The notes: generated by a model from the letters alone, not told the origin. 64,000 bases of DNA from Escherichia coli (GCF_003334765.1 NZ_QOWT01000002.1); one strand, 5' to 3'. Positions 12,515 through 27,496 are shown, counted from the first letter of the stretch. A program made the numbers and translations.

Positions 12515-14356
12515 TTACTGCTGTGTTGCCTCAGTAGCAAGCAGCGGCCTGATGGCATTTGCAGCGTTACTCAACGCTCTTTCATAGGCTGGCGTTCCAG
12601 CTTTAGTGTTTGCCAGACGTAAGAGAGCATTCCTTGCTGCTTTGGACTCATACAAACGCATCATTGCACCAAAGCCAGCCTCAAGCCCCATTGATACACC
12701 AAGAGTCGCAGTTGCGCCAATCGTCCTTATCCTGTTGGCTTGTGATTGCCCCGTCTGAGTTACTACATTTGCGGTGTCTGACCTTGCTGTTTGCTGTAGA
12801 ACTTCATGAAGAGCATCAAGCTCTTTCATGTGCTTTCCAGAAAAAATAGTGTTGTAAATTTCACCGCCTGACTGAGATTTCAGCTTATTAACTTCAGTGA
12901 TGAACTTGGCTGGAGAGTCACCGGCCTTTTCCGCTATTTTGCTGACGTAAGCTGCACGCATAGCATCTTTCCCTTTATCATCCAGGGCGCTCCATATTCG
13001 TTTCACGTCAGATGGTTTTCTGCTTAATACAACGGTATTTATAAGTTCAGGACTGGCTTCACTGCTTGCCTTGTTGAGCTTGTTAGCAATGTTTTTATTA
13101 AGCACCTTATTATAAACGTTTGCATAATCAGAATTTGCTTTAAGGTATTTTGCTGCGTCTGATGCACCGAGGTTTTTAGCAACTGCGTTACGAAGGTCTT
13201 TTGACATTGCATTCTCTACCATATTGGTAGCTGCTTTTGCCTGGTTGGGGAAGACCATAGCATCTCCCTGAACATTAGATCTAAATGCTGTTCTGTGCTG
13301 ACGCAAGAGATCAAACGTAACATCCAAATCAGTTGCAGGGTTTGCTAATTCTTCACGTAGGTTACGCAAGGATGTAAGCAGGCTTTGATTGGCAGACGTC
13401 CCAAGCCGTTCCTGTCTTGCGATCGCTGTATTCAGAGCATTCATGGTATTTGTGGTATCAACTGCGGCATTACCCATTTTATTGGTGACGTCATTGATAA
13501 CAGCGCCAGCGGCATCCTTCCGCCCCCTTAACGTGGTGGTAAGAGATTTCACCACATCATCAGGGTTGTACTCACCAAAACGGTCAAAATAATTACTTAC
13601 CAGCTTACTACGCGTTGCATATTGCTCCGCTCGCTTTGAGCCTGTCCCGAGCAAAGCCCCCTCGGCATCCTGAGTTAGGCCGCGAGTGAAAGCATTTTTC
13701 GGCGGGATAACATCAGATGTCATTGGTGTCACGCCCATCGATTCTGATGTGGCAATTTTCTTCGCCACTTCTGGCGCAATATCACCTTTTATAGCCGTTA
13801 TTCCACGCCCTATTCCCTTTGCTGCTGCGGAAAGAACACCCTGAGTGGCAAGGTTAACTCCGGCATTTTTAGCTGCATTTTGTGCGAAATCGCCTTTCTG
13901 ATTTGCGGCCTCTGCCAGTGATCCAATAGCCATGCTTCCTGCCGTTCCAACTCCTGGAACTAAATACCCACCAATTGTTTCACCGGCTTGCGCGTAGGGG
14001 TCTGTCGGTCTGTCTACTGGACGATAAACATCATCCAAAACCTTGGGTCCACCAAGCCCCTGACTGATTGCATTAATCAGACTTGCGCCGCCCTGCAATA
14101 CGTCAAATGGTATGTTTACCAGACCACGACCAGCCTGTTCTGCAATTTGCCCTGCACTTTGACCACCAGTGAGCCAATCGCCAGCTTGTTGCATCAATGA
14201 TGGTTCTTCCCGTGTTGGTGCATTATTGGCCTGATTAACTGTTTGTTGCTGAACAGCCTGACCAGCAAAATACTCATCAATGGCGGTGCCAATATCTTCG
14301 GTGCTCGTACCATCAGGAAAGGTAAATGTCTTACCGTTTGCAGTTACTTTCATCAT
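12515..14356 (-). CDS. Ejection (DNA transfer) protein, P22 gp16-like
   Basis: 613 aa, Ala/Gly/Asn/Thr-rich; position and length correspond to P22 gene 16 (synteny-based). Confidence 0.5.
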
Positions 14357-14622
14357 TCCACCGTAAATTGAATGCCTGATTTTGAGGTATATGATCCAAC
14401 CTGATTCCGTGGTTCTCCTGAAGGTGTCGAATCTTGTGCTGGCGCTGCGTCAGTATTCATTGACATATACCGCTTAACGGCACTCCCCAATGATTCACCT
14501 TTTTTAACATCCAACCCCAATATCTGACCGCCATTACGCGATTGTCCAGGGTTGCCATTCGCGCTCATCCACTCGGCTTTAAACTCATTAAACTGCGCGT
14601 TTCGTCGCTCAAGGTTTGCCAT
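14353..14622 (-). pseudogene. Possible C-terminal fragment of the gp20-like ejection protein gene, out of frame with 14565..15482
   Basis: 89 aa ORF overlapping the upstream ORF by 58 nt in another frame; no SD before its ATG. Confidence 0.35.
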
Positions 14623-15482
14623 TGCATCAAGCCATCTTGCGACCGTCTCAGGGTTTCCATGTTTACTGACAGCTTAGGTGCTTCGCTAATCAACTGCTGA
14701 GCCTTTTCCTGCGCTTGCTGCATCTTAAACCCGAACTCTTGCTGATCCAGAGCCAAGCGTTGTGCTGCGATATTGTGCCCAGTCATTGCTGACTGATAGG
14801 AAAGGTTTTGCCCTCTCGCCTGAAGTGCTTCACCAGCCTGATTGCTGCGGATTGTCTCTGCCAGCCTGCCTCGGTCAATCTCACGACCAGCCATCTTGTC
14901 CTGAACAGCAAACGCCTTTTCTGGTCCAAGCGCACCGAGAGACATAGTAGTCAGCATGTGTGATAGCTGCTCTGGATTCTGGATACCTGTCTGAATCATC
15001 CAGTCAGCATTAGCACCAACGCGATTTAACCTGTCCTTGTTGTCAGTAATGAATTTACTGTAGGCTTCCGGTCCCTGAGAAAGAGCGACGTTAGCCCTCA
15101 TGGCTAAATCGCCCATATCGTTGCGTTGCTGATCATTAAGACCGGAAAACGCCTGTTGTGCCTGTGCAACAAACGCTGGATTTTCCTGGGCAAACTTAAA
15201 TAGTCCCGATGGATCACCAGAAGCCCATGCATCAGCGTGAACCTTATTGAACGCACTAATAGCTTTCTGTTGCTGTTCCTGATTGTAAATATCAGCAACT
15301 CCAGCCAGACCACGTAACGCGGTCAGGCCAACGTTATTTGCACCTGAGCGAGCCAGTTCATTGTTTTCGCGGATCAGACCAAGCGTTGCGTTAATGTCGC
15401 TTGCCTTTGGCGCATTCTCATTTTGCGTACCGATGCCAGCCAGAAAACCACCAGAATTAATACCCTGTTGCCACGTAGCCAT
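14565..15482 (-). CDS. Ejection protein, P22 gp20-like (possibly frameshifted near 14600)
   Basis: 305 aa Q/A/N-rich; between gp7-like and gp16-like genes. Confidence 0.45.
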
Positions 15483-15492
15483 TGATTACCCC

Positions 15493-16188
15493 TTAATAAA
15501 GCAGTGAACCAAGCAGACCGATACCAGCACCGATACCAGCACCCCACGGAGTTGATGAACCAATTAATTTCGCAAGTCCAGCCCCAGCAATAGCACCAGA
15601 CGCACCTCCGCCAATAGCAGATTGCATTGCTGATGGTCTGTTGGCATTTGCCGCTGCAAGAGCCGCACTTTGCTGCGAAATCTGACTCATGTTGTTGGCA
15701 TATGTCTGCCCGGCGTTTGCCTGACCTTGCAGTGCGCCAAGACCAATATTTGCCAGATTCTGGTAGTTGTTCATCTGACCAGATAGCCATTGCTGACCAA
15801 GCGTTGGTGCGATTGTTGCTAACTGATTACCGGTTGCAGTGGAACCCAATCCACCTGTTGCTTCCGCTGCCGCCAGACTCTGATAGCGAGCCTGACCAGC
15901 AAGATCTTTGTACTGCTGAGAGTTGTAATACTGGTTAAGTGCCTGACCTTGCCCTTCCAGAGACGATAAGTTCTCGAGGCTGCCGACATACTTATCAGCC
16001 AGAGGAGTAAACGGCTTCAGGTTGTTCATGATGGTGTTGAACTGCTGATTTTGCAGGTCTGCGGCATACTTCTGAGCTTCTGCTGCATACTTTGCGCTTT
16101 TATCAGAACTGCCACCTTTCCCGCCTTTTTCAGGGCAATAAGGTTCCTCGCCGCGCAGTTTTCTGCCCAGCTTAAATGCATATAACAT
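15493..16188 (-). CDS. Ejection protein, P22 gp7-like (C-terminal 231 codons of the 460-aa ORF)
   Basis: From MLYAFKLGRKLRGEEP... the ORF is Q/N/G/A-rich with a Gly-rich hydrophobic C-terminus; length matches P22 gp7 (about 229 aa). Confidence 0.45.
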   Translation of the reverse strand: MLYAFKLGRKLRGEEPYCPEKGGKGGSSDKSAKYAAEAQKYAADLQNQQFNTIMNNLKPFTPLADKYVGSLENLSSLEGQGQALNQYYNSQQYKDLAGQARYQSLAAAEATGGLGSTATGNQLATIAPTLGQQWLSGQMNNYQNLANIGLGALQGQANAGQTYANNMSQISQQSAALAAANANRPSAMQSAIGGGASGAIAGAGLAKLIGSSTPWGAGIGAGIGLLGSLLY

Positions 16189-16875
16189 GGCTAACGCCGA
16201 GATGCCGTATTGCGCATAGCTCATACAATCAATTTCGCCTTCGCAAAGTACAACCGCCCTCACGCCAGCGTCCAGAGCCTGCCATCCGAACAGACAAGGT
16301 TCGCAATCACCTTCTGCCATAATGACTTTCTTCCCGTCCGGGCGCTCAGTGCTGATTCGCTTGACCTGCAACAACTCACCATCGCGTTTGTACGGAATCA
16401 CCAGAGCATCCAGTTCTCGCTCTCCATTCCACACCTTGCCGCTGACAACCTCGTAGCGCTTTACGATTTCTGGCGATATGCCACGCGATTGCAGGTACTC
16501 AAGATGGGATTCTGTTCTGGTAACGTAGCGGGCGATTTTCTTGCGATCAGGTCTGGAGAATTTCTTCTCACGTCTGGCATCGAAATGGTGATCGTCATCC
16601 TTGATACCGAGAAATGCTTTCGCTTCCTGCATAGCCTGATGCAGGTTAATTCCACGACATGCCATCCACAAATCAAGCATGTCACCGCCGTCTCCCTCAG
16701 CGAAATCAGCCCATTTTTTCTTGCCGCTAAGGTTGACCTTAAGGCTGTTTCCCTTGTCACCGTTGACGTTACCGGCAACCCACTCATGCCCCTCTTTCTT
16801 GCCGTTTGGCAACAGGTGCGGAGCCACCCTGTCAACCTGCGCCCAAAGCAGGTCGCTAAGTTCACTTGGCGTCAT
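16189..16875 (-). pseudogene. Truncated toprim-domain DNA primase (N-terminal 229 codons) fused in frame to the gp7-like gene
   Basis: Degenerate zinc-finger-like WADFAEGDGGDMLDLWM then toprim motif VVLCEGEIDCMS; no downstream DxD motif; directly follows O-like gene. Confidence 0.5.
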
Positions 16876-16982
16876 GATTCCCTCAGATTGAGATTTTTAA
16901 ACCAGAAATCGACAAACGAAATACTTAACCAGCCGTGGTTATAACCAGCGACCAGTAGCGATTTGATTTTTGATTTCATGGT

Positions 16983-17843
16983 TCACCTGTCGAAAAACAC
17001 GTAGCCAGTTTTCGATACGGTGATTGCGGATGATGGTTTGGATTGTGGTTGAATGGTTTCTGGCTTTTCGTCGTTCCAGCGCTGACCGTTCAGGTAGCTC
17101 GATGGTAACAACCTGTCGAATCCGAACTGCTTACCATTCCTGCATGCGATGTCTTCTGCCAGCATCGTGGCAAACTCGCTTGCCGTACCCCTGGTAGTTT
17201 TACGCCATTCCCTGAACTGTGTTCTGAATGCCGAAGCTGCGTTTTTCTTCCCGGCTTTCCGCATGCCTGCACACCAGAATATTTCCTCGAATGCCTTGTC
17301 GGTTTCTTCGTGACGGTCAGGTGATTTTTCACACTCCGTCCGAACACTTTCGGACATAGTGTTTTTATTATTTCTTTTTTCTTTTGTAATAGTTTCTTTT
17401 GTGTGTCCCTGTTTTGGTGACAGCGCTGTCACCGTTTTGGTGACACTTTTTGTCACCAATGCGGTGACATTATCACCAGAGTAGTGACACCCTTCGATTT
17501 GCCATTCCTCGATGTTCTTGTTAGGCCCGATTTGCTGGCCTTCGCGAAGGATAACCTTCATCGCGATAAGCTCATTCTTGGCCTTGTTTACCTTCTGTCT
17601 TGGCAGCCTGGTAATTTGAGCTAACTGACTATCAGAGATGCGATCCATCTTTTTACCGTAGCCGTATGTTTTACGGCATATGGCGTGGGCAACCTTGCTC
17701 TGATTTTTCGTTAAATCTGCGCCGATAAGCTCTTCATACAGGGCATTTGCAAGACGGGTATAACCATCTTCAACTTCTGCCACACGACGCTCCACAGGCC
17801 GTTGTGAAGGCCTTAAATGTGTTACGGTTGCAAGATTACTCAT
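16983..17843 (-). CDS. Replication initiator, lambda O-like (P22 gene 18-like)
   Basis: 286 aa; follows cII; iterons and AT-rich stretch lie inside the gene as in lambda ori. Confidence 0.65.
17359..17490. other. Phage replication origin: GGTGACA/TGTCACC iterons plus adjacent AT-rich region inside the O-like gene
   Basis: TTTTGGTGACAGCGCTGTCACCGTTTTGGTGACACTTTTTGTCACCAATGCGGTGACATTATCACC next to TTTTTATTATTTCTTTTTTCTTTTG. Confidence 0.6.
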
Positions 17844-18016
17844 GACCTTTCTCCTTCTGCATCAGCTTCACTTTTTCCAACTCAGCCCGGAATCGACCAG
17901 GCTGCTTGAAGCTGGACAGGAAGCGATCACGTAGTATGTGTTTGTGAATTTTGTCCTGGTAAGGACTGAGTTGTTTTGTCATAATGACTCCTGTGGATTG
18001 ATCCAGTCTTTCTACA

Positions 18017-18295
18017 TCAGGCCTCGAAGAATTCGCCGTTCTTCGGGGCTTTTTCTTTTGTCAGCATTCTGGCTACTTGCTTAGCCAGTTCCGCCAACTC
18101 CTCGTCTTCAACACCCCATTCAAGAACAGCAAGAAGCATTCCCATTTTGGGGATGAAGCTGTCTTTCCATCGCGAAATTTGCGATTCATTAATCCCTAAC
18201 GCGTCGGCAACCTTTCGCTGACCACGTACAGCAATTCGATTCAGGATGTTGCTTGTAATTGCATTCGCTTTCTTGCGAGTACTTGTAAGTTGCAT
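18017..18295 (-). CDS. CII-like transcriptional activator
   Basis: ...[46 protein letters not shown] resembles lambda CII ...[25 protein letters not shown]. Confidence 0.8.
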
Positions 18296-21084: not shown

Positions 21085-21164
21085 GCATACCAATAACGCT
21101 TCACGAGAGGTGTTTATTCATGAGCGTAAACGCTGATTAATGAACGCAGTTGATAGGATATAAA

Positions 21165-21677
21165 ATGGCATTTATAAAGATTCTTGAATTAATTTCCCTA
21201 AGTGAGATTAATAATGTTGTCAAATATAACCCTATTTCTGGTGAGTTCACATGGCTAAAATCTTATGGAGCAAGAAAGATAGGTGGAACTGCCGGAACAA
21301 TAACAACAAGCGGCTACTTAAGGATTTTCATTAACGGAAGACACTATGCTGCACATAGACTTGCATGGATTATCACTTTCGGTGTTGAGCCTGAAGGTAT
21401 TATCGACCATATAAATGGCATAAAGACAGATAACAGAATTTGCAATCTGAGGCTTGCAACTTACTCACAGAATTCAATGAATAGTAAAATAAATACCCTC
21501 AACAAATCAGGTTGCAAAGGAGTCACATGGAAGAAGGAAAGTAGAAAGTGGGCTGCCTATGGGAAATTAAACGGGAAGAAAAAACATCTAGGGTACTTTA
21601 ATGAATTAGAAGATGCCAAAAAAGCTTACTGCGACTTTGCCAGAAAGCATCACGGCGAATTCTACAGGAGCAAATAA
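21165..21677 (+). CDS. HNH endonuclease with AP2-like DNA-binding domain
   Basis: HINGIKTDNRICNLRLATYSQN HNH motif; C-terminal GVTWKKESRKWAAYGKLNGKKKHLGYFNELEDAKKAY AP2-like; ORF track starts at TTG 21150. Confidence 0.7.
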   Translation: MAFIKILELISLSEINNVVKYNPISGEFTWLKSYGARKIGGTAGTITTSGYLRIFINGRHYAAHRLAWIITFGVEPEGIIDHINGIKTDNRICNLRLATYSQNSMNSKINTLNKSGCKGVTWKKESRKWAAYGKLNGKKKHLGYFNELEDAKKAYCDFARKHHGEFYRSK

Positions 21678-21811
21678 TGAATGAATATATTTTAGCGGGT
21701 AGCGGCGTCATGTCCGCTTTCTACCCGCACGAATCTGAATTATCACGCCGAGTTAAACAATTAATCAGAGCAGCAAAGAAACAACTGGAGGCGTTATGCG
21801 CAATGAAATAG
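21677..21811 (+). CDS. CIII-like small protein, 44 aa (not in ORF track)
   Basis: MNEYILAGSGVMSAFYPHESELSRRVKQLIRAAKKQLEAL resembles lambda CIII MQYAIAGWPVAGCPSESLLERITRKLRDGWKRL. Confidence 0.45.
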   Translation: MNEYILAGSGVMSAFYPHESELSRRVKQLIRAAKKQLEALCAMK

Positions 21812-21948
21812 CCATTAATCACCAGATGCTTCGTGCTGCACAGAACAAAGCAGTAATAGCCAGATTTATTGGTGATTCCAAAATGTGGCTTGAAGCAAAT
21901 AAAGCGATGAAATCAGCTATCAACCTTCCGTGGTATCGCAGGAAATGA
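21796..21948 (+). CDS. Kil-like small protein, 50 aa (not in ORF track)
   Basis: MRNEIAINHQMLRAAQNKAVIARFIGDSKMW...; directly follows cIII-like ORF; motif recalled from lambdoid Kil, unverified. Confidence 0.35.
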   Translation: MRNEIAINHQMLRAAQNKAVIARFIGDSKMWLEANKAMKSAINLPWYRRK

Positions 21949-22029
21949 GTTTTACAGATAACTGGTCAGACGAAGAATTCATTCGTCAGATGAACAAAAT
22001 GCTCAATCAGCACAAAGAACAGGAGAAAG

Positions 22030-22341
22030 ATGATGATTCTGACTCTGAATGATAAGCGTGAAATATCGCAAATAATCGCAAGTTTTACTGATGAAGATTA
22101 CGAGCGAATCAACAGTGAAGTTGATCGCCTCTGCAAACGTTGCGACCCAATAAGCGAAATGCTTCGCTCATATAAACCAGATGAACACACTAAGGACGCT
22201 ATCGACTGGCTGGAAGATGATGACTGTAACTATCAGGAAAAAGCCGCTGAATGGTTCTGGGATGCAATAACCGAAAGAGTTAAGGCTGAATATGCCTTCG
22301 CAATATTTAAACGCAGACACATTTTTGGAGAAGCTGCATGA
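22030..22341 (+). CDS. Hypothetical acidic protein upstream of recT
   Basis: 103 aa ORF with stop overlapping recT start. Confidence 0.5.
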   Translation: MMILTLNDKREISQIIASFTDEDYERINSEVDRLCKRCDPISEMLRSYKPDEHTKDAIDWLEDDDCNYQEKAAEWFWDAITERVKAEYAFAIFKRRHIFGEAA

Positions 22342-23240
22342 GCAATATCGTTGAATTCGTTAAACAGCAAGAGCAGTTATTCTGCGGAGCATTGACTGAA
22401 CAGACGGTGACATGGGCTAAGGAAAGCCAGTTTGCAATTCAGTATTTCCAGAAAAACGATTACCTGGCTAAAACAGCACTGGCAAATCCAACCAGCGCAC
22501 AGAACGCCATCATCAATGTTGCGGCGATCGGCATCACCTTAAACCCGGCCAGCAAACTGGCTTATCTGGTTCCTCGCGACGGCATGGTGTGCCTTGATAT
22601 CAGTTACATGGGATTACTTCACCTTGCACAGTCGACAGGATCAATTAAGTGGGGGCAATGCAAACTGGTGTACTCAAACGACACCTATGAATCAAACGGC
22701 CTTGATTCAGCACCAACCCACAAATACAACGCATTTGGTAAGCGAGGCTCTATTGTTGGTGGTTATTGTACGGTTAAAACAGCAGATGGTGACTACCTCA
22801 CTGAAGAAATGAGTCTGGCAGAAATTAAAGCTGTGGAAGCAACGAGCAAGGCAAAGAATGGACCGTGGAAGACATTCTGGGAAGAGATGGCGCGTAAAAC
22901 AATAGTTAAACGCGCCAGCAAATACTGGCCTAAAGCCCAGCGACTGGATAATGCCATTCACCTGCTTAACGAAGATGAAGGTATGCATCAGGAACCAGTT
23001 ATGCCGCACAAATCAGAGGAAGATATCCGCGAAGATGAACGGAAACGCCAGCAGGAAATTATGGAAAAAGCACAACTTCTTTGTGATGAAATGGCTCAGG
23101 CAGAAAACATGGATGATTTGAAGCGATATTTTGCAGAAGCATATCGCCTGACATCTGGAATGAAATTGCAGCAGAACGTACAAGCCATTTACATAGAATG
23201 CAAAGCGAAACTGGAGGTTGCCAGTGAGCAAACTGTATGA
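22338..23240 (+). CDS. recT: RecT-family single-strand annealing recombinase
   Basis: ...KNGPWKTFWEEMARKTIVKRASKYWP resembles E. coli RecT ...NNGPWVTHWEEMAKKTAIRRLFKYLP. Confidence 0.8.
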   Translation: MSNIVEFVKQQEQLFCGALTEQTVTWAKESQFAIQYFQKNDYLAKTALANPTSAQNAIINVAAIGITLNPASKLAYLVPRDGMVCLDISYMGLLHLAQSTGSIKWGQCKLVYSNDTYESNGLDSAPTHKYNAFGKRGSIVGGYCTVKTADGDYLTEEMSLAEIKAVEATSKAKNGPWKTFWEEMARKTIVKRASKYWPKAQRLDNAIHLLNEDEGMHQEPVMPHKSEEDIREDERKRQQEIMEKAQLLCDEMAQAENMDDLKRYFAEAYRLTSGMKLQQNVQAIYIECKAKLEVASEQTV

Positions 23241-23706
23241 AATTGCCAATGAATACGCAAAATTGATGGATTCAGATTTAGAACCAGAGATGATTGCTGA
23301 CACAATAGAAGGCATGGAAGGAGAATTTACCGATAAAATAGAGCAACTTCTTTCCGTCATTAAAAATGAATCTGGTTATGCTGAACGCCTCAAGGAAGAG
23401 GCAAAGTCACTGAATGAGCGAGCCGCAGTAATTCAAAATAAGATTGACAGCATCAAATCATATATAGCGTCATCGCTTGAAATGGTTGGCAAGAAAAATA
23501 TTCGAGCAGGTATTCACCAGGTAACAATCCGCAAACCGTCAGAAACTGTAGAAATCATCGACTCAAGCGCCCTTCCTCCTGAATACCTTGAGTTTGAAAC
23601 GACAATTAAAGCCGACAAACTGGCAATCAAGCACCAACTAAAAGCAGGAATAAATATTCCCGGTGCTCAACTCAAGGTTGGGAAACCTTCACTTCTTATC
23701 AAATAA
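23218..23706 (+). CDS. Phage protein, coiled-coil N-terminus (Gp157/Mu-Gam-like?), unknown function
   Basis: 162 aa ORF overlapping recT end. Confidence 0.45.
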   Translation: MPVSKLYEIANEYAKLMDSDLEPEMIADTIEGMEGEFTDKIEQLLSVIKNESGYAERLKEEAKSLNERAAVIQNKIDSIKSYIASSLEMVGKKNIRAGIHQVTIRKPSETVEIIDSSALPPEYLEFETTIKADKLAIKHQLKAGINIPGAQLKVGKPSLLIK

Positions 23707-26343: not shown

Positions 26344-27279
26344 TTATGAAGTGGTTTTTACCTGTTCTCTTAGCCAGATAATAAACGCTTCAATTTTTGG
26401 CCACTGCCTGCCCGGTAATGTGGTGATGTAATAATGCTGATGGCATTTCACCGTCATATCGCCAAACGGCGCGACGAGCTCACCACTGGCAAGCCTTTTT
26501 TGTACCAGGCGTTTTCTTCCCATCGCCACCCCAATATGATTCATCGCGGCAATAACAGCTAAATCAGAACGATCAAAGCCAATTCCAGAAGATGTCGGCA
26601 AATTAACCGCATAATGTTGCGCCCAACTATGCCATTCATCCGTACCGGAGTCGTTGCTCCATGCCTGTCTGTCATGGAGCAACGTACAGTGACACAGGTT
26701 AATTACCGTGTTGGTTAAAGCATGTCTTTGAGCGTATTCCGGGCTACATACTGGCAGGATTTCTTCATCCATCAGAAAGTGATGAGTGAGTTGCGCTGAC
26801 GGCGCATCATCAAAGTAGATCGCCAAATCGATTCCGGCACGTTGCAGATTGACGTTGTCATTACCAGTGAGCACGGTGAGCGAAATAGACGGATACCGGC
26901 GTGTAAAGTCACCTAATGCGGGCACCAACCAGCATTGGGCGATAGAGGGCCGGGAATACAGAGTTAACGTTCCCGATAACTCCTGATTTTTGATATCAAG
27001 AATTTCCTGGTTCAGGGTATCCAGCGACGATTTTAGCGCCCAATAAACACGTTTCCCCTCGTGCGTTAATTCCACTTTGCGATGGGAACGAACAAACAAC
27101 TGAATGCCCAATTCTTCTTCCAGCTGATTGATACGGTGACTTACCGCACTGGGGCTCAGCGACAATTCCTCTGCCGCCAGGGCGAAGGACTGATGCCTGG
27201 CAGCCACTTCAAAAGTATGCATTTTTGATAATTGCCAGCCGTTAAGCAGCCGATTTCTTATTTCACGAAGGGGTTCCAT
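26344..27279 (-). CDS. dsdC: LysR-family activator of D-serine utilisation DsdC
   Basis: Recognised; ORF 26344..27285, start probably MEPLREIRN. Confidence 0.9.
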   Translation of the reverse strand: MEPLREIRNRLLNGWQLSKMHTFEVAARHQSFALAAEELSLSPSAVSHRINQLEEELGIQLFVRSHRKVELTHEGKRVYWALKSSLDTLNQEILDIKNQELSGTLTLYSRPSIAQCWLVPALGDFTRRYPSISLTVLTGNDNVNLQRAGIDLAIYFDDAPSAQLTHHFLMDEEILPVCSPEYAQRHALTNTVINLCHCTLLHDRQAWSNDSGTDEWHSWAQHYAVNLPTSSGIGFDRSDLAVIAAMNHIGVAMGRKRLVQKRLASGELVAPFGDMTVKCHQHYYITTLPGRQWPKIEAFIIWLREQVKTTS

Positions 27280-27496
27280 AATCACCTCATTTTTCGCTTA
27301 AGTGTAAAAAAATAGCGGCAAAATTTCAGCTATGAGATGAGCTAAAGTAAACCATATCTCAATTCACCTTCATTTTTAGATGTAAATCACTCCATTGATG
27401 CAATTTACCTCATGTGAAAGGCAAATTTTATCGTTTGTCAGCCTGCGTTGTTTTTTTGTCCAATATCATCAGGTTAATCACAGGGGAAGGTGAGAT

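Follow-up and report, generated by a model that had tools for sequence, protein, structure and literature searches.

Positions 17331-17489 of the DNA analysed here very probably form an origin of bidirectional theta replication of the oriλ family, situated in the part of a phage O gene that encodes the linker of the O protein. The origin is intact and has most likely been orphaned by the loss of the helicase domain of its partner. It lies in a window of 64,000 nucleotides of Escherichia coli DNA (GCF_003334765.1 NZ_QOWT01000002.1), from whose first letter all positions are counted, and belongs to a P22-like (CUS-3/Sf6-like) prophage remnant of about 20.6 kb between the tRNA-Arg(CCT) gene argW (5556-5630) and dsdC (26344-27285). 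The reading draws on the anatomy of the element, its homology to oriλ, the constraint on its DNA, the linkage of its modules and the truncation of the partner gene. It would imply binding by O, unwinding, recruitment of a helicase and present inactivity.

The O gene and its product

The O-family replication initiator gene occupies positions 16983-17843 on the minus strand and encodes 286 amino acids. Residues 20-114 match the full Pfam model Phage_rep_O (E = 3.9e-37). The protein consists of an N-terminal winged-helix domain (about residues 20-114), a linker encoded by the origin (118-160) and a C-terminal domain of the ES18/ε34 type. Within the linker, residues 119-147 are encoded by the iterons, and the origin lies inside the Phage_rep_O gene where the N-terminal DNA-binding domain gives way to the C-terminal domain. 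A reading made earlier from the sequence alone (the sequence-only reading) had placed the repeats in a replication initiator gene and had taken them as support for its functional assignment. The Pfam match and the position of the iterons within the open reading frame bear out both points. The 286-residue reading frame is thereby confirmed as a genuine O-type initiator, and the origin for this prophage type is placed at 17331-17489.

Phage mEp043 encodes an O protein that is 100% identical to this one, and the five nucleotide differences between the two genes are all synonymous. The genes cro, cII and cI are present upstream of O.

In an AlphaFold model the N-domain has a mean pLDDT of 77, with values above 87 over residues 41-110. 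The model contains helices at 26-41, 46-60, 71-78 and 82-94 and a beta hairpin at 98-107, that is, a helix-turn-helix with a beta-hairpin wing. Its best fold matches in the PDB are dimeric winged-helix regulators of the MarR and CRP families; these matches are weak (E = 7e-3, TM about 0.45), and no PDB fold matched the model at E <= 1e-3. A sequence search of the PDB found no solved O relative, the top match (E = 0.69) being irrelevant.

Anatomy of the origin

The repeat unit of the origin is a 19-bp palindrome, TGTCACC-N5-GGTGACA, which occurs four times within 17404-17489. Iteron 1 in gene order (17471-17489; coding strand TGTCACTACTCTGGTGATA) forms 5 of 7 dyad pairs. Iterons 2 (17451-17469; TGTCACCGCATTGGTGACA) and 3 (17427-17445; TGTCACCAAAACGGTGACA) are perfect, with 7 of 7 pairs each, and the centre of iteron 3 reads AAAAC, as in the iterons of λ. 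Iteron 4 (17404-17422; TGTCACCAAAACAGGGACA) forms 5 of 7 pairs, and its right half is degenerate, likewise the case in iteron 4 of λ. The array is one of about four inverted-repeat iterons of about 19 bp, with 5, 7, 7 and 5 of 7 dyad pairs. The iterons start at gene nucleotides 355, 375, 399 and 422, giving start-to-start spacings of 20, 24 and 23 bp.

At least six GGTGACA/TGTCACC heptamers had been counted in the sequence-only reading. This number stands only when one mismatch is allowed, and the unit is better described as four 19-bp palindromes. Five exact heptamers are found in the array (at 17416, 17427, 17439, 17451 and 17463), with two more that have one mismatch (TATCACC at 17471 and AGTGACA at 17483) and one that has two (TGTCCCT at 17404).

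Such a cluster is not expected by chance. The 19-mer pattern with at most two mismatches is found in the 64-kb window only at the four array sites. With at most three mismatches there are 9 matches in the window, against 1.42 +/- 1.12 expected, and none of 100 shuffles reaches 9. Exact heptamers number 19 in the window, against 5.9 expected. One iteron-like 19-mer with three mismatches, TGTCACCGTTGACGTTACC at 16755-16773 on the plus strand, falls within the primase gene at a distance of some 650 bp from the origin; mEp043 has the same 19-mer, which is probably due to chance.

Iteron 4 is directly followed in the gene by a 45-bp AT-rich tract at 17359-17403, the presumed DNA-unwinding element. 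The tract is A-rich on the coding strand (the minus strand), T being found at 31 of its 45 bases on the plus strand, and its sequence CACAAAAGAAACTATTACAAAAGAAAAAAGAAA is identical to λ at 32 of 33 positions. The GC content of 15% at 17360-17399 is the minimum within 16900-17900, and 40-nt windows that are equally AT-rich make up 0.09% of the 64-kb window, in 11 places. A strand-asymmetric AT-rich tract of about 40 bp is thus present right after the last iteron, as the sequence-only reading had proposed when it placed the repeats next to such a tract.

On its far side the AT-rich tract adjoins a palindrome at 17331-17362, an inverted repeat of 14+14 nt (ACACTCCGTCCGAA/TTCGGACATAGTGT) that forms part of the ES18-type C-terminal module. 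Its position matches that of the 28-bp palindrome of λ O (gene nucleotides 477-504), which the older literature counts as part of ori. This correspondence in position suggests that the palindrome at 17331-17362 may also have a role in the origin. Each type of O C-terminal module carries a palindrome of its own, unrelated to the others, about 36-48 nt past the CACAAAAGA junction (gene nucleotides about 476-506). Among these palindromes (that of the window and those of loci L004, L009, L007 and L069-L086) the position is kept and the sequence is not, and their scores are only modestly above those of control windows.

Comparison with known origins

The first comparison is with the origin of phage λ, in which four inverted 19-bp repeats bind O dimers (PMC5043065, PMC7466680, PMC3349717). 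The λ O protein opens a 40-bp A+T-rich region on supercoiled DNA, and activation of the origin needs transcription from pR (PMC5043065, PMC7466680, PMC3349717). The two origins share their place at the boundary between the N- and C-terminal domains of the O gene, the four dyad iterons of 18-19 bp, the central AAAAC, the degenerate right half of iteron 4, the tract of about 40 bp with a coding strand rich in A, and the palindrome just beyond it. The annotated λ iterons (39034, 39054, 39078 and 39101) have the identical spacing of 20, 24 and 23 bp and start at gene nucleotide 349, compared with 355 here. After iteron 4 both genes read CACAAAAGA(A/C)ACTATTACAAAAGAAAAAAGAAA, with 32 of 33 positions identical. 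The suggestion that the layout is that of λ ori within O is well supported by the spacing, the position in the gene and the AT-rich tract.

The differences from λ concern specificity and partners. The half-sites are ATCCCTC/GAGGGAT in λ and TGTCACC/GGTGACA here, and the N-domains of the O proteins are only 52% identical. The C-terminal domains are unrelated, and the partner is λP/DnaB in λ but a primase-helicase here.

Another comparison is with gene 18 of phage P22, in which four repeats of about 20 bp, unlike those of λ, have been reported (PMC8022706). They lie at the same position in the gene and are followed by the CACAAAAGA junction, an AT-rich stretch and then a palindrome. Here too the half-sites differ (TTTACC/GGTAAA in P22), the N-domain is 50% identical, and the partner is the DnaB-like helicase gp12. 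Set beside λ O and P22 gene 18, as the sequence-only reading had advised, the origin has the same architecture at the same gene position with other half-sites. GenBank records carry a rep_origin feature at the homologous place in ES18 ("similar to lambda ori") and in P22 ("similar to phage lambda").

The closest relatives are the phages mEp043, Sf101, SEN22 and vB_EcoP-720R6. Their O genes are 99.1-99.7% identical to that of the window at the DNA level and contain the same iterons, AT-rich tract and palindrome. They also have the same downstream primase-helicase gene up to the deletion junction, although in these phages it encodes the full 626 amino acids, compared with codons 1-229 in the window. 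The left half of iteron 2 is TGTCACT in most relatives and TGTCACC in the window. Judged by its sequence, the origin is a textbook element of the oriλ family, and its cassette is already present, 99-100% identical, in these four sequenced phages.

Phages ES18, ε34 and g341c resemble the window in only one half of the gene. From the AT-rich tract on, the C-terminal half of O is 93-96% identical, and these phages also have the palindrome, the small gene 60 and a primase-helicase partner of the gp61 type. Their N-domain and iterons (ATCCCTC), in contrast, are of the λ type, the two halves being recombinant modules joined in the AT-rich tract (PMC2629481).

The iteron origins of plasmids such as RK2 also place an array of initiator-bound repeats beside an AT-rich unwinding element (PMC5043065). 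However, the initiator binds to plasmid iterons as a monomer, and these iterons generally keep helical phase (PMC5043065), whereas the repeats here are palindromes suited to dimers, lie inside the initiator gene and are unevenly spaced. An origin of the plasmid type, with direct, non-palindromic repeats in helical phase, was considered and rejected, given the 24 of 28 dyad pairs, the intragenic location and the spacing of 20, 24 and 23 bp.

The full feature table of the mEp043 record contains no rep_origin, and the other matching records have only CDS features under the matches. Neither the TGTCACC iteron sequence nor any experiment on iterons of this type was found in the searchable literature, and the paper on Sf101 does not discuss an origin. 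Since the inspected records of this type show no origin and no searchable paper gives the iteron sequence, the element appears to represent an undescribed specificity class within the known oriλ family. This O/ori type occurs in 171-175 of 5,426 complete E. coli genomes.

Constraint on the repeats

Repeats within a coding sequence may have nothing to do with DNA function. For instance, they could be the mere DNA shadow of a Val-Thr-x-x peptide repeat in the O linker, an explanation that is now scarcely credible. What speaks for it is that iterons 2 and 3 share a frame and that the half-sites GTC ACC and GTG ACA both encode Val-Thr, which yields a VT repeat with a period of four residues. Iterons 1 and 4, however, fall in other frames, where they specify CHYSGDN and LSPKQGH; the frames of iterons 1 to 4 are 0, 2, 2 and 1, three frames in all, and the peptides are unrelated. 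λ likewise shares the DNA architecture while its peptide is unrelated. Synonymous codons were also randomised, with the 31-residue peptide held fixed and codons drawn either uniformly or by local codon usage in 100,000 trials each. The 24 of 28 dyad pairs observed compare with 16.3-16.6 +/- 1.75 under this randomisation, and so high a symmetry was reached in 5 (uniform) and 3 (local codon usage) of 100,000 trials. The observed match of the half-sites to their consensus, 52 of 56, was reached in none. The same pattern is seen in the diversity of relatives, for which 80 IMG/VR loci chosen by an N-domain protein pattern gave 55 unique sequences over gene nucleotides 1-470, with N-domains 85-100% identical. 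In these, the diversity at third codon positions is 0.048 in the half-sites and 0.211 in the N-domain, about fourfold lower; many of the relatives are near-identical, so that conservation may partly reflect recent common ancestry, yet the third positions of the N-domain vary four times more in the very same sequences. The spacers between the iterons have a diversity of 0.18 at all three codon positions, and their amino acids vary freely. The randomisation and the diversity together indicate that constraint tracks the 7-5-7 pattern of the iterons and not the codon pattern. With the reading frames they largely refute the peptide repeat as an explanation. Codon repetition alone, without conservation of the DNA in homologues, had been named beforehand as the finding that would count against an origin; when this was checked, both the randomisation and the conservation of the half-sites opposed it. 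The repeats are constrained as DNA and are inherited with their cognate N-domain.

Palindromes in a transcribed region may also act as RNA, by forming hairpins in the O mRNA or by ending antisense transcription, and not as DNA bound by a protein. A consensus scan did find two terminator-like sites on the plus strand, at 17415-17434 and 17427-17445, each with a stem of 8 pairs followed by a T-rich stretch. Such matches are nevertheless a by-product of dyad repeats with A/T-rich centres, and the reading of 17415-17445 as a terminator or RNA hairpin was rejected on this ground. The conservation, moreover, is confined to the 7+7 half-site positions, while loop and spacer positions are variable. 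A hairpin would tolerate any compensatory pair, whereas the half-sites co-vary with the predicted recognition helix, and the λ iterons have been shown experimentally to be O-binding sites (PMC7466680, PMC5043065). Action as RNA is therefore very unlikely beside an oriλ-type array. Rfam has no match in the origin region; in the window it matches only the tRNA-Arg and the sar RNA, which lie elsewhere.

Pairing of initiator and iterons

If the iterons are bound by O, their sequence should change together with the DNA-binding domain. An IMG/VR scan with a double-iteron pattern gave at least 120 stretches, and 80 loci were examined. In all 80 of the examined loci with a TGTCACC array, an O N-domain that is 67-100% identical lies directly upstream.

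The predicted recognition helix (ten residues, not spelled out here) accompanies the TGTCACC half-site and co-varies with the half-site in other classes; some of the IMG/VR loci had been picked by means of the iteron pattern itself, and the correspondence of helix and half-site is to that extent circular and supportive, not independent. A helix that begins with R or K, followed by eleven residues not spelled out here, goes with TGTCACC in nearly all of about 59 unique sequences; in a few, a variant or the mirror heptamer is the top 7-mer. The helix (I/V)SR(S/E/P)K.. goes with TGTTACC/GGTAACA in 7 of 8 IMG/VR matches, those that lie in O genes. In λ the helix PVKRCNEAKL goes with ATCCCTC, and in P22 the helix APTKCSTAKN with TTTACC. 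In the TGTTACC class the change from C to T in the left half is mirrored by a change from G to A in the right half, as is expected of a site bound by a dimer.

Other phages provide further examples, with the same architecture in the same place. The O gene of Proteus phage vB_BPM-V3 has the half-sites TGTCACC/GGTGACA, and those of Erwinia phages phiEt88 and Midgardsormr38 have TGTTACC/GGTAACA. TGTCACC-N5-GGTGACA and its predicted helix can thus be regarded as a specificity class, which about 3% of complete E. coli genomes carry. Its sister class TGTTACC/GGTAACA differs from it by a mirror-symmetric single-base change and another helix, and the two make a natural pair for the study of iteron recognition by O.

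The remaining one of the 8 TGTTACC-array matches, L213 (IMGVR_UViG_3300020112_001044), was rejected as an O-type array, as it lies outside any O gene. It is an unrelated region of several GGTAACAGAG repeats at 7990-8160, intergenic, after a primase-like gene, in a phage without an O-like gene nearby. These GGTAACAGAG repeats look like an independent origin-like iteron array.

Exchange of modules

The O gene is a mosaic, and megablast breaks it at the origin, the segments 16983-17416 and 17371-17843 having different relatives. The C-terminal half (16983-17416) is 93-96% identical at the DNA level to ES18, ε34 and g341c, phages with λ-type N-domains and iterons. The N-terminal half with the iterons (17371-17843) shares 99.8% identity with the PhiR12 phages, in which the λ O C-terminus and λ P come next. 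Among the IMG/VR relatives, the cassette of N-domain and iterons is joined to at least five clusters of C-termini, and divergence begins inside the AT-rich tract. The tract at 17359-17403 is thus the zone of crossover that joins the N-terminal/iteron module to the C-terminal one, and it provides another clear case of lambdoid module exchange with a crossover inside the AT-rich tract of an origin.

The type of C-terminus also tracks the downstream gene. The ES18-type C-terminus has a primase-helicase as its partner at 57 of 59 loci, the P22 type has a gp12-like helicase at 11 of 11, and the λ type has λ P at 2 of 2. This linkage supports the inference, derived from λ, that the C-terminal domain recruits the helicase machinery.

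The deletion and the state of the origin

By homology with λ, dimers of the O winged-helix domain would bind the four 19-bp iterons, the DNA being wrapped or bent to form an O-some. The O-some may then open the adjoining strand-asymmetric AT-rich tract, on DNA that is negatively supercoiled and transcriptionally activated, and the C-terminal domain of O would bring in a helicase. For the ES18-type module this helicase is predicted to be the phage-encoded T7-gp4-like primase-helicase (ES18 gp61 type), rather than λP with the DnaB of the host.

In the window this partner is incomplete. Downstream of O follow a small reading frame of 35 codons (16872-16979, minus strand), which was read from the sequence and has the position of ES18 gene 60, and the remnant of a primase-helicase gene of the ES18 gp61/mEp043 gp055 type (16194-16875, minus strand), which retains codons 1-229 of 626. 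Leftward from the O gene, the match to mEp043 extends to about 16192; on the left side of 16193 the window corresponds to the beginning of a P22-gp7-like ejection gene, as in CUS-3. The deletion junction (16190-16193), which has the imperfect microhomology CA.GG.TA, fuses the primase-helicase remnant in frame with the first part of this ejection gene. The resulting fusion reading frame (15493-16875, minus strand) encodes 460 amino acids, namely residues 1-229 of the primase-helicase and a complete gp7 (P22_gp7 positions 1-229 of 230, E = 2.6e-131).

The deletion comprises about 20 kb, with the loss of the nin region through gene 14. The intact primase-helicase of 626 amino acids has a Toprim domain at 209-296 and a DnaB-like/AAA helicase domain at 355-594, and the deletion removed most of the former and all of the latter. 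The downstream helicase or loader partner matched to the C-terminus of O is thus cut short at about codon 229 of 626. The missing cognate partner bears on present function and not on the identity of the DNA element. The exact junction occurs in none of the 5,426 complete E. coli genomes, and the remnant accordingly looks recent or rare.

The sequence-only reading had held that the origin survived the deletion. As a sequence it did, for the junction is some 0.8 kb past the downstream end of the O gene, the deletion left O and ori untouched, and the O protein is that of mEp043. As a function it probably did not survive, the helicase domain being gone. Because this domain belongs to a primase-helicase that nearly always accompanies this type of O C-terminus, the origin is probably unable to fire without a partner in trans, and most likely it cannot fire unless a related phage supplies one. 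The prophage remnant, having an intact origin and no helicase, would then be expected not to replicate on induction. On the other hand, an O homologue without a helicase or loader gene is found in 34 of 314 lambdoid phages (PMC12315714), so the origin may yet fire without a partner.

A retained O gene, iterons and oop-like RNA could also serve, not as an origin, but as a determinant of exclusion or incompatibility specific to a replication type. In this role the cassette would titrate or handcuff the O protein of an incoming phage, as in the "inhibition phenotype" of λ oop-ori. Plasmids with λ oop and iterons 3-4, without the AT-rich tract, block phages of the λ replication type (PMC3349717). 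The window retains all four iterons and an oop-like unit, the firing of its origin has probably been lost, and the frequency of this O/ori type among complete E. coli genomes implies that matching phages circulate. Yet the inhibition in λ was seen with multicopy plasmids, and the single chromosomal copy in the window makes exclusion by the cassette unlikely. O and ori merely lie beside a random-looking microhomology deletion, as would fit passive survival; nothing points to selection for retention, and a junction absent from the complete genomes points to a remnant that is recent or rare. A role as an exclusion determinant is accordingly improbable. It is also quite improbable that, by analogy with λ, the orphan cassette has been kept for the protection of the host against phages with TGTCACC-type origins, as an "inhibition phenotype" from a single chromosomal copy. 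An intact but orphaned oriλ-type origin remains the preferred reading.

The oop-like antisense unit itself lies at 17980-18060 on the plus strand. Its -10-like element CATAAT, identified by reading the sequence, spans 17980-17985 and overlaps with the start codon of the DUF2740/orf48 reading frame. Its terminator-like hairpin of 14 pairs (18019-18051), with a run of T after it, falls within the 3' end of cII. P22 has an annotated oop at the matching place, and Rfam gives no match at 17980-18060.

The remainder of the prophage remnant

The attachment site at argW is empty in E. coli ML35 and likewise in the checked strains that have an identical left flank. The position of the integrase gene beside the tailspike gene was considered as a rearrangement and rejected, for phage CUS-3, also at argW, has the same gene order. 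Between int and the tailspike gene, a reading frame at 7142-7813 (phrog_16087) lies in the slot of neuO in CUS-3.

Other parts of the remnant differ in their state of preservation. The immI region looks intact, and the antirepressor gene ant (10300-11178, minus strand) adjoins its antisense regulator, the sar RNA, at 11180-11246 on the plus strand (Rfam, 65.6 bits). A gp20-like ejection gene (14353-15482, minus strand) looks disrupted, with a reading frame of 305 amino acids (14565-15482) that matches only profile positions 1-277 of 509, followed by one of 89 amino acids (14353-14622). The early-left region (21150-23706, plus strand) encodes an HNH endonuclease (21150-21677), a RecT-like annealing protein (22338-23240) and a Mu Gam-like protein (23218-23706).
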